DNA from: an uncultured delta proteobacterium
GTDB lineage: Bacteria > Desulfobacterota > Syntrophia > Syntrophales > Smithellaceae
Reading direction: 5' to 3'
DNA: 64,000 bases
Assembly: GCA_903907985.1 (NCBI GenBank)
Contig: CAIVQG010000022.1
Span: forward strand, 1,538 to 65,537
A program made the position numbers and the translations under genes. This document shows positions 6,237-7,823 of the stretch, one piece after another (within the stretch, counting starts at the first letter, position 1; the number at the start of each line of letters is the position of its first letter). The notes beneath the pieces were generated by a model. That model saw nothing but the letters and a program-made list of their open reading frames with translations. It was not told the origin of the DNA and ran no database searches.

Positions 6237-7823
6237 CTATGTTCCCTGGATTTTTGTTCCGTCTCCATATACAAGCATGCGGTATGTTTTTTCAATTCTA
6301 TCCCAGTTTCCCTCACGGTCCATTGACCAGTAGCGGCCAATTACCGAAACAACCTGTCCTATATTCAGCGATAAAGATTTTTCTTCAATTTTATTTATAT
6401 ATAGAGGACCACTTTCCGGCATTTCGCCGCGCCGTCCCAGCATGGAATGAATAAAAAGATTTTCAATTCCTTGGGCTTTGGCCATTTCCATTAGGGCAAA
6501 AAGGTGATTGATCGACCCATGAGAGCTGAAGAAAGAAACTATCCCGATCAGATGCAGCGCCTTGCTGGACTCTTTAGCTTTCCGCATCACACTTAAAAAA
6601 GCATCGTTCTGGTAAAAATATTTATTGGCAATGGCCTGGTCGATTTTAAACCGATCGGAATAAATTTTACGGCCGGCACCGATATGCAAATGTCCAGCCT
6701 CCGAATTACCTACGGTGCCAGCCGGTAATCCGACGGCTTCTCCTGCTGCCGCAAGCCGGGATGTGGGAAAGCAACCCATGAGCTTATCCATAACGGGTGT
6801 TTTGGCGCGGGAAATCAGATTGGCTTCTATGTTATCATTTAGTCCCCATCCATCGAGAATTATCAGTAACAATCTTTTTGTAGCTTCGCTTCCGGTCAGT
6901 TTTTGCGAAATCAATGATGAACCTGTCATCAAGGTGGATGGAGGTAAACCAAGAATATCCAAAACGGTCGGTGCCACATCAGTTAGCTCGCCTTCTTTGC
7001 GCAAAGTTAGTGCACTATTTTGGTGCACTAGAATAAAAGGCACAAGGCTGTCGGTATGTCCTGTATCCACGGCTCCATCCGGATAATACCATTTTTCTAC
7101 AGTGCCGTGATCGGCAGTAATAATTACTGCCATTTCTTTTTCCCGGGCATTCTCAATAATCATGCCGGCATGTTTGTCGACCGCCTCGACAGCCCGCAGA
7201 ATGGCGGCTTCGTTTTCAATATGGCCAACAACGTCCACATTAGGAAAATTAACAACGATAAAATTACAATTATCATCAGCAATTTTATCCATTGCTGCTT
7301 TCGCTATCTTTTCTATGGACATTTCCGGCGCTTCATCAAACTGGGCAACATCTTTTCTGGTCGGGACAACAATCCTTTCTTCTCCGGAAAAGAGCTCTTG
7401 CTTCTTTCCATTAAAGAAGAACCCTACATGCACTGCTTTTTCTGCTTCCGTAATTTTTGCCTGTTTCATTTTATGACGGGAAATAATTTCGCTTAACGTA
7501 TCTTGCAGTGTTTCCTCTGGCGGGAAAGCAACCTGGACGTTAAGCCCTTTTTGATATTCAATCATGGTGGCAAAATGCAGATTAAGATCAGGGGTAATAG
7601 GAAATTCAACGAAATTATCTTCTGTTAAGCTGCGGGTTAATTCGATTTCCCGCTCACCGCGAATATTGTAAAAAATGACACAGTCATCCTTGCCAATCCT
7701 GCCCGCGGGTTTACCTTGCAGGTTTGTAAAAATCAAAGGCAAAAGGGTTTCGTCTTCCTGTCCTTCTTTGTAAGCGCTGCGGACAGCTTCGGACATGGGG
7801 AAATTAAAATCTGAACTCATCAT
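6237..7823 (-). CDS. gpmI: 2,3-bisphosphoglycerate-independent phosphoglycerate mutase homologue with swapped (circularly permuted) segment order
   Basis: Contains [61 protein letters not shown] and [11 protein letters not shown]. The canonical N-terminal block lies in the C-terminal half of the ORF. Confidence 0.8.
   Translation of the reverse strand: [528 protein letters not shown]

Follow-up and report, generated by a model that had tools for sequence, protein, structure and literature searches.

A circularly permuted family of cofactor-independent phosphoglycerate mutases with an apparently remodelled substrate pocket

The permuted gene and its domain layout

A 64,000-nucleotide stretch of DNA from an uncultured member of the Smithellaceae (contig CAIVQG010000022.1 of assembly GCA_903907985.1; hereafter the window) was analyzed for a gene of the iPGM (cofactor-independent phosphoglycerate mutase) type. 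A textbook enzyme of glycolysis and a drug target, iPGM works by a well-studied hinge mechanism between its two domains. An initial annotation of the window had claimed that one open reading frame of 528 amino acids contains the segments of iPGM in swapped order. The gene and the parts of its product, referred to below as the query, are arranged as follows.

6237..7823, minus strand: circularly permuted iPGM gene, complete, 528 amino acids plus stop codon, ATG start (open reading frame listing)
7512..7823, minus strand, residues 1-104: transferase part 2 (canonical ~207-310), now N-terminal, with R55 and R58 (canonical R261 and R264), which are invariant in the family (alignment to 1EJJ 218-310)
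6909..7511, minus strand, residues 105-305: phosphatase (alkaline-phosphatase-like) part 2, canonical 311-509, with K129 (K336), D197/H201 (D403/H407), D238/H239 (D444/H445) and H256 (H462) (Pfam and 1EJJ alignment)
6879..6908, minus strand, residues 306-315: linker from the ancestral C terminus to the ancestral N terminus (unaligned gap between the 1EJJ segments)
6660..6878, minus strand, residues 316-388: phosphatase part 1 (canonical 4-76), with D324 (D12), S374 (the phosphoserine nucleophile Ser62, nt 6702-6704) and H378 (H66) (alignment to 1EJJ 4-76)
6240..6659, minus strand, residues 389-528: transferase part 1 (canonical 77-216), now C-terminal, with S433-S-H435-G (nt 6516-6527; canonical G-V-H123-S), G463-R-R-G466 (nt 6426-6437; canonical D-G-R153-D154) and R497/R503 (R185/R191) (Pfam iPGM_N 394-524 and residue tables)

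The domain boundaries 76/77 and 310/311 are those of 1EJJ; they are consistent with the Pfam coordinates, in which the Metalloenzyme stretch starts at residue 100. The columns D324-G-W-G and G372-N-S-E-x-G-H of phosphatase part 1 are invariant.

In a phmmer comparison with PDB sequences, two non-colinear segments of 1EJJ (Geobacillus stearothermophilus iPGM) were recovered. Residues 4-211 matched query 316-523 (185.7 bits, independent E value 1.3e-53), and residues 218-509 matched query 12-305 (196.0 bits, independent E value 9.1e-57). The N-terminal ~300 residues therefore correspond to the canonical C-terminal part and the rest to the canonical N terminus, as the initial annotation had described, and all motifs quoted there are present in the translation. 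The colinear order of canonical GpmI was not found in the query and was regained only on doubling or re-cutting. Residues 314-836 of the self-concatenated query aligned with residues 2-510 of the canonical iPGM P0128 in one high-scoring segment pair of 524 columns and 375 bits, and a single full-length segment pair with P0128 was regained when the query was re-cut at residue 312. Doubling thus makes the sequence colinear with a relative of unpermuted order, the old termini being bridged by a short linker. The existence of this linker had been correctly anticipated; it measures 10-11 residues here, and across all permuted lineages its length is 7-11 residues and its sequence variable.

Both Pfam domains of iPGM were detected, PF01676 (Metalloenzyme) with 202 bits and PF06415 (iPGM_N) with 178 bits, and the proposed check of domain order found each of them split in two stretches. 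The Metalloenzyme stretch at query 100-294 covers profile positions 62-251 of 252, and the iPGM_N stretch at query 394-524 covers positions 1-131 of 217. Because this C-terminal iPGM_N stretch stops at profile position 131, the chain now begins and ends within the transferase domain, which agrees with the earlier proposal. The query also scored 476.9 bits against the NCBIfam equivalog model TIGR01307 (cut-off 330.65), summed over two out-of-order stretches.

The open reading frame at 6237-7823 is a genuine, evolutionarily fixed circular permutant of iPGM, swapped at canonical ~211/217. Its phosphatase domain is contiguous and is inserted into a split transferase domain, so that the canonical arrangement is inverted while both hinge peptides are kept. 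Canonical GpmI (TIGR01307/HAMAP MF_01038; 1EJJ, 1O98, 2IFY, 5KGN), the nearest known family, has the same two domains, is ~38-41% identical to the query over both halves, and shares the nucleophile, the metal ligands, the hinges and the Arg/Lys clamps. In layout the query differs from it by the swap, the 10-residue linker, the contiguous phosphatase domain and the split transferase domain. The archaeal-type iPGM apgM (PF10143/TIGR00306) and the phosphopentomutase DeoB, two further mutases of the alkaline-phosphatase superfamily, have the metalloenzyme core and the Ser/Thr phospho-enzyme mechanism in common with the query, and their models matched its phosphatase part weakly (E ~1e-9). However, they carry other cap or insert domains and lack iPGM_N, and the query clearly belongs to the GpmI branch.

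Two consecutive ATG codons are found at 7818-7823. An AGGTG ribosome-binding motif precedes the first by 2 nt and the second, for which its spacing is better, by 5 nt. An exact-sequence look-up returned no record identical to the window protein. The closest protein, P0001 (99% identical), has 527 amino acids, and the second ATG (7818-7820) is probably the true start.

Conservation, distribution and origins of the permuted order

The closest protein clusters were drawn from ENA, JGI, NCBI and Logan assemblies. All 120 of the 120 best clusters were permuted relative to a canonical reference, with 64-99% identity and 98-100% query coverage in one local alignment. In a scan with one genome per GTDB species, the permuted order was carried by 36 of the 80 loci listed and thus by at least 36 species genomes; relatives therefore share the order, a point that the initial annotation had put up for checking. 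The clusters include genes on long contigs (4.78 Mb, ENA ERZ21831019 ctg34076l; 3.2 Mb, ERZ21831265 ctg82134l; and 778 kb), the first two of which have the same neighbor genes as the window, and an Aminicenantes copy lies on a complete chromosome of 4.07 Mb (OY969586.1). Comparison of the window gene with its 85%-identical counterpart at locus L003 gave a ratio of nonsynonymous to synonymous substitution rates (dN/dS) of 0.11. Searches with tblastn detected no iPGM remnants of a trimmed duplicate flanking the window gene, the upstream region 7824-8000 included.

These data bear on the concern, raised by the initial annotation, that the swapped order might be a collapsed or mis-joined tandem duplication of canonical gpmI confined to this contig. 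Tandem pairs of canonical iPGM genes do exist (L031, L034, L039 and L041), and a mis-join could in principle yield a C-N chimera. However, the same order and breakpoint recur in the 120 nearest clusters and in at least 36 species genomes, Mb-scale contigs included, and the window gene has an intact reading frame and conserved synteny. Because more than 150 independent assemblies, long-read Mb-scale contigs among them, share the order and the gene is under purifying selection, mis-assembly was rejected, and we regard its chance of explaining the locus as negligible.

The predicted structure is in line with this result. An AlphaFold2 model built from a 27-sequence family alignment reached a mean local confidence (pLDDT) of 93.1 and a predicted template modeling score (pTM) of 0.87; the linker is ordered in the model, with a pLDDT of about 85-90. 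In a Foldseek search against the PDB, iPGMs were the only significant matches, with template modeling (TM) scores of 0.4-0.5 over about 300 columns, since a sequential aligner confronted with a permutant aligns the larger colinear half only. The modeled fold is thus, with confidence, iPGM-like.

For phylogenetic analysis, 27 permuted sequences were put back in canonical order and aligned with 121 canonical sequences, and a neighbor-joining tree was calculated with 200 bootstraps and midpoint rooting. A core permuted clade was recovered in all 200 bootstraps, and the midpoint root makes it sister to all other sequences. Within it, subfamilies are defined by the pocket motifs. Members of SF1, the "GRRG" subfamily to which the query belongs, are at least 50% identical to the query; they carry G-R-R-G, without variation, where canonical iPGMs have D-G-R-D and, likewise invariant across phyla, (F/H)(F/Y)SSHG(S/T) where these have DGGVHSH. 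SF1 occurs in Syntrophales, Anaerolineae, Aminicenantes, Cloacimonadota, Thermoanaerobaculaceae and metagenome-assembled genomes (MAGs) labeled "Eubacteriales". The sister subfamily SF2 (35-42% identical; D-G-R-S and xKSSHG) occurs in Bacillota, Anaerolinea and Sphaerochaetaceae. Further divergent representatives are P0132 (DRPG) and P0151 (NRHG).

The permuted loci listed span at least five phyla. Their record labels comprise Syntrophales/"Deltaproteobacteria", Chloroflexi/Anaerolineae, Aminicenantes, Thermoanaerobaculaceae, Cloacimonadota and Sphaerochaetaceae, as well as the Bacillota Oscillibacter, Christensenella, Lachnospiraceae and Ruminococcaceae. All permuted genomes among the matches listed are MAGs or uncultured isolates, mostly from anaerobic lineages, and none comes from a cultured organism. 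The family is common in syntrophic and fermentative lineages represented by metagenomes only, such as Syntrophales, Aminicenantes, Anaerolineae, Cloacimonadota and Oscillospirales. In one locus, L038 6001-7557 of an Aminicenantes MAG (CAVQXL010000004.1, 1.98 Mb), tblastn returned three pieces with a gap over the GRRG region, which may be a frameshift, a pseudogene or an assembly error.

Three proteins, P0123, P0127 and P0130, are permuted and yet keep all canonical signature residues, and the tree placed them among the canonical iPGMs. Together with the relatives P0303-P0307 of P0130, these canonical-pocket permutants share with the query the breakpoint (~209-217 in P0123, P0127 and P0130) and the linker length (10-11 residues), but they differ from it in retaining GVHS, DGRD, V64, D263, M404 and N447. 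About six permuted proteins are 75-85% identical to P0130, one of them encoded on a 512-kb contig; the next matches are canonical iPGMs, with ~50% identity. In only 3 of the 200 bootstraps did all permuted sequences form one monophyletic group. This pattern, in which permutants of the P0130 type keep the canonical pocket and group with canonical iPGMs, suggests that the permutation arose independently at least twice at one site. One ancient permutation, after which the core clade evolved fast, is also compatible with a neighbor-joining tree taken alone. Repeated permutation at one site, if true, would add to the few documented cases in which a topology has changed convergently.

Permutation by duplication and fusion would require neighboring gene copies, and such an arrangement was found in four genomes, labeled Patescibacteria MAG, "Gammaproteobacteria" MAG, "uncultured bacterium" and "bacterium" MAG, in which two complete iPGM genes of canonical order lie 3-9 nt apart.

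L031 791-2356 and 2360-3934: tandem iPGM pair
L034 4069-5634 and 5644-7215: tandem iPGM pair
L039 6004-7578 and 7582-9156: tandem iPGM pair
L041 6094-7551 and 7555-9069: tandem iPGM pair

The two copies of a pair are old paralogues with ~42% mutual identity, and the first copies of the pairs resemble one another. All catalytic residues are kept in both copies; the first has S-A-H-A instead of G-V-H-S. These pairs are a plausible type of precursor only. As direct ancestors they were rejected, considering that both copies keep Asp154, that they share just ~42% identity and that the permuted clade does not include them. No fused-duplicate intermediate was found among the over-long homologues P0126, P0150, P0161, P0191, P0193, P0224, P0243 and P0250, all of which are single canonical iPGMs with extra domains.

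Natural circular permutants of enzymes include the GH70 glucansucrases relative to GH13 and the permuted DNA methyltransferases, and the usual explanation for a family-wide, heritable permutation of a conserved fold is that a gene was duplicated in tandem, the copies fused and the outer ends were lost. The iPGM permutant differs from these cases in belonging to a central glycolytic enzyme family, in the inversion of its domain insertion and, maybe, in repeated permutation at one site. In the literature searched in full text, no description of a permuted iPGM was found and all co-occurrences of the terms were incidental. This large family therefore appears to be undescribed, as the initial annotation had supposed. 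Its existence indicates that the hinge mechanism tolerates re-threading of the chain, and it offers ready material for folding and engineering studies.

Gene neighborhoods

Downstream of the permuted gene, the window contains two further genes on the same strand; upstream, an intergenic region separates it from divergent genes.

5679-6230, minus strand: macro-domain protein (Pfam Macro)
4044-5678 and 3720-4040, minus strand: PAS hybrid histidine kinase/receiver (Pfam PAS/HATPase_c and Response_reg)
7824..8000, no strand assigned: divergent intergenic region, with the AGGTG motif just before the ATG pair (sequence)

Only 6 nt separate the iPGM stop codon from the macro-domain gene, and the macro and kinase genes abut; the two genes (3720..6230) are probably co-transcribed with the iPGM gene. 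The kinase is split by an in-frame TAA codon (4044-4046, minus strand; …ILLIDDESLILDVA*DLLKALGY…) in the receiver domain, and the relatives at L001 and L002 encode a single protein of 671 amino acids. This TAA codon may be a nonsense mutation, the mark of a pseudogene or a sequencing error. The divergent genes upstream are a small DUF gene, pcm, an nlpD-like gene and carD. In a promoter scan of the intergenic region, the sigma-70-like match at 7953-7924 (minus strand) was weak (9/12) and not above the shuffled expectation. No second phosphoglycerate mutase was detected within the 64-kb window with iPGM, apgM or an E. coli GpmA sequence.

The iPGM-macro-kinase order was seen in L001, L002, L003 and L005 only, that is, in genomes of the Smithellaceae/Syntrophus type, to which the synteny of the window as a whole is also limited. 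Because the linkage is confined to this group, it carries little weight as a functional clue. Other SF1 loci have varied housekeeping neighbors (among them ABC-2 transporters, HisRS and glycine-cleavage T protein) and no conserved catabolic operon, as one would expect of a gene of central metabolism.

The neighborhoods of SF2 are of another kind. At L028, L029, L030, L033, L044, L020 and L026, two to four tandem, translationally coupled HAD hydrolase paralogues of ~250 amino acids each precede the SF2 gene, which lies at ~6001. Other neighbors are LacI regulators, a PfkB kinase, UxaE, a xylose-isomerase-like TIM barrel, KduI/IolB and transaldolase. At L026, an apgM-type mutase gene (PF10143; 7523-8773) lies directly downstream of the SF2 gene, together with an RpiR regulator. 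This gene content would be the signature of a specialized catabolic pathway rather than of glycolysis, and the operons look like an uncharacterized sugar or sugar-acid phosphate pathway.

The canonical-pocket permutant P0130 was found in yet another setting. At L083 its gene (5001-6626) overlaps the end of pgi (glucose-6-phosphate isomerase, PF00342; 3556-5004) by 4 nt, and three contigs, which come from at least two samples (among them DRR538836 and DRR538840), show this pairing of pgi with P0130. Because a canonical-pocket permutant is coupled to pgi, the permuted topology seems compatible with glycolysis.

Active site, substrate pocket and probable function

In the alignment of the 27 re-ordered sequences with the canonical ones, the metal ligands and the nucleophile (canonical D12, S62, D403, H407, D444, H445 and H462; query D324, S374, D197, H201, D238, H239 and H256) are kept in all permuted sequences, and their retention, which the initial annotation had noted for the query, extends across the whole family. 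H66, H123, R185, R191, R261, R264 and K336 are also kept in every permuted sequence. R153 is kept in SF1 and is replaced by Pro in P0132 and by His in P0151, two outlying representatives. The contacts to phosphoglycerate in canonical iPGM (1EJJ/1O98), namely H123, R153, D154, R185, R191, R261, R264 and K336, are kept in the query at seven of eight positions, the exception being Asp154, which is Gly.

The phosphoserine/two-metal chemistry is, judging from these residues, almost certainly retained. The surroundings of the substrate differ from those of canonical GpmI by the loss of Asp154, by SSHG for GVHS and GRRG for DGRD, and by V64A, D263E, M404V and N447T. In the core clade as a whole, G121-V122-H-S124 has become S-S-H-G; in the query, the neighboring positions 121, 122, 124, 151 and 152 are altered. 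The initial annotation had likewise reported diverged substrate motifs. Its SSHG motif in place of GVHS was confirmed. Its second example, GRR in place of GRD, needs a small correction: canonical D151-G152-R153-D154 aligns to query G463-R464-R465-G466, and therefore Arg153 is kept and Asp154 is the residue lost. Overall, the alignment shows a conserved catalytic machinery and a putative glycerate pocket remodeled in a clade-specific manner. The query was filed as a permuted, pocket-modified iPGM variant because it has the domain content and the catalytic residues of iPGM but lacks the colinear order and one of the contacts.

We favor, with a probability of about 0.5, the reading that SF1 enzymes still interconvert 3- and 2-phosphoglycerate as the phosphoglycerate mutase of the cell, with a remodeled pocket (SSHG, GRRG and no Asp154). 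This reading is favored because the phosphate and carboxylate clamps are kept, the TIGR01307 cut-off is passed and the SF1 contexts are of the housekeeping type; its weak step is the assignment of the substrate. The enzyme would then work like other iPGMs. Closure of the domains about the two kept hinges would bury the phospho-acid, and the two-metal site (D324, D197, H201, D238, H239 and H256) would activate Ser374, which would take up the phosphate. The dephosphorylated acid would be held and re-oriented by R55, R58, K129, H435, R465, R497 and R503, and the phosphate would then be handed back to the re-oriented acid.

Several observations weigh against a phosphoglycerate mutase and for a neofunctionalized paralogue, in which the core clade including SF1 would keep the chemistry but act on another phospho-substrate, possibly a phospho-acid with more negative charge or with another hydroxylation, or a sugar-acid phosphate, or would be a phosphatase, re-phosphorylation of glycerate being impaired without Asp154. 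Asp154 is Asp in 118 of the 121 canonical sequences and Gly or Ser in every member of the core clade. Eight active-site or second-shell positions that are at least 85% conserved in canonical iPGM have been replaced together in this clade (V64A, V122S, D154G/S, D263E, M404V, T408, G409 and N447, the last being N447T in the query), and they neighbor the nucleophile, the substrate arginines and the metal ligands. In SF1, D151-G152 has become G-R; this shifts the pocket by a net +3 charges and does not vary although overall identity is only ~50%, which suggests that a specific property has been selected. The GRRG and (F/H)(F/Y)SSHG motifs are likewise constant from phylum to phylum. The fully supported split of the core clade from everything else goes along with a long branch. 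The query reached 372.4 bits, summed over two out-of-order stretches, against the 862 bits needed for the equivalog model NF003897. At L009, in a Chloroflexi MAG, a gene for a 208-residue His_Phos_1 protein (PF00300, dPGM superfamily; 7563-8189) overlaps the SF1 stop codon, and the SF2 operons, with their coupled tandem HAD genes, are sugar-type and non-glycolytic, once beside an apgM-type mutase. The databases are divided as well. JGI uses the label "2,3-bisphosphoglycerate-independent phosphoglycerate mutase", whereas the NCBI pipeline names many members just "alkaline phosphatase family protein" and others "sulfatase-like hydrolase/transferase"; with labels so inconsistent, metabolic reconstructions may miss a phosphoglycerate mutase or assign one wrongly. 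However, all residues known to bind the phosphate and the carboxylate of phosphoglycerate are retained, SF1 lacks a conserved catabolic context and passes TIGR01307, and the role assigned to Asp154 is a putative one. A new substrate, or a phosphatase function, is a serious contender that we rate somewhat short of even odds.

A dead pseudo-enzyme or a regulatory protein, such as a sensor tied to the macro-domain and PAS-kinase genes, would agree with the altered pocket and with the probable shared operon in Smithellaceae. However, that linkage is limited to one family, and a dead enzyme would not be expected to keep all seven metal and nucleophile residues and every phosphate-binding residue unchanged in subfamilies that are 35-50% identical; we consider this explanation very improbable. 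A combined scenario, in which the core clade comprises not phosphoglycerate mutases but phosphomutases or phosphatases with new substrates (SF1 in housekeeping contexts of uncultivated anaerobic lineages, SF2 in HAD/LacI/PfkB operons of the sugar-acid type) and the permutation arose at least twice at one site, is put forward tentatively, as rather doubtful in its entirety. The invariant remodeled pocket and the SF2 operons suggest that at least one new phosphomutase activity is open to direct discovery.

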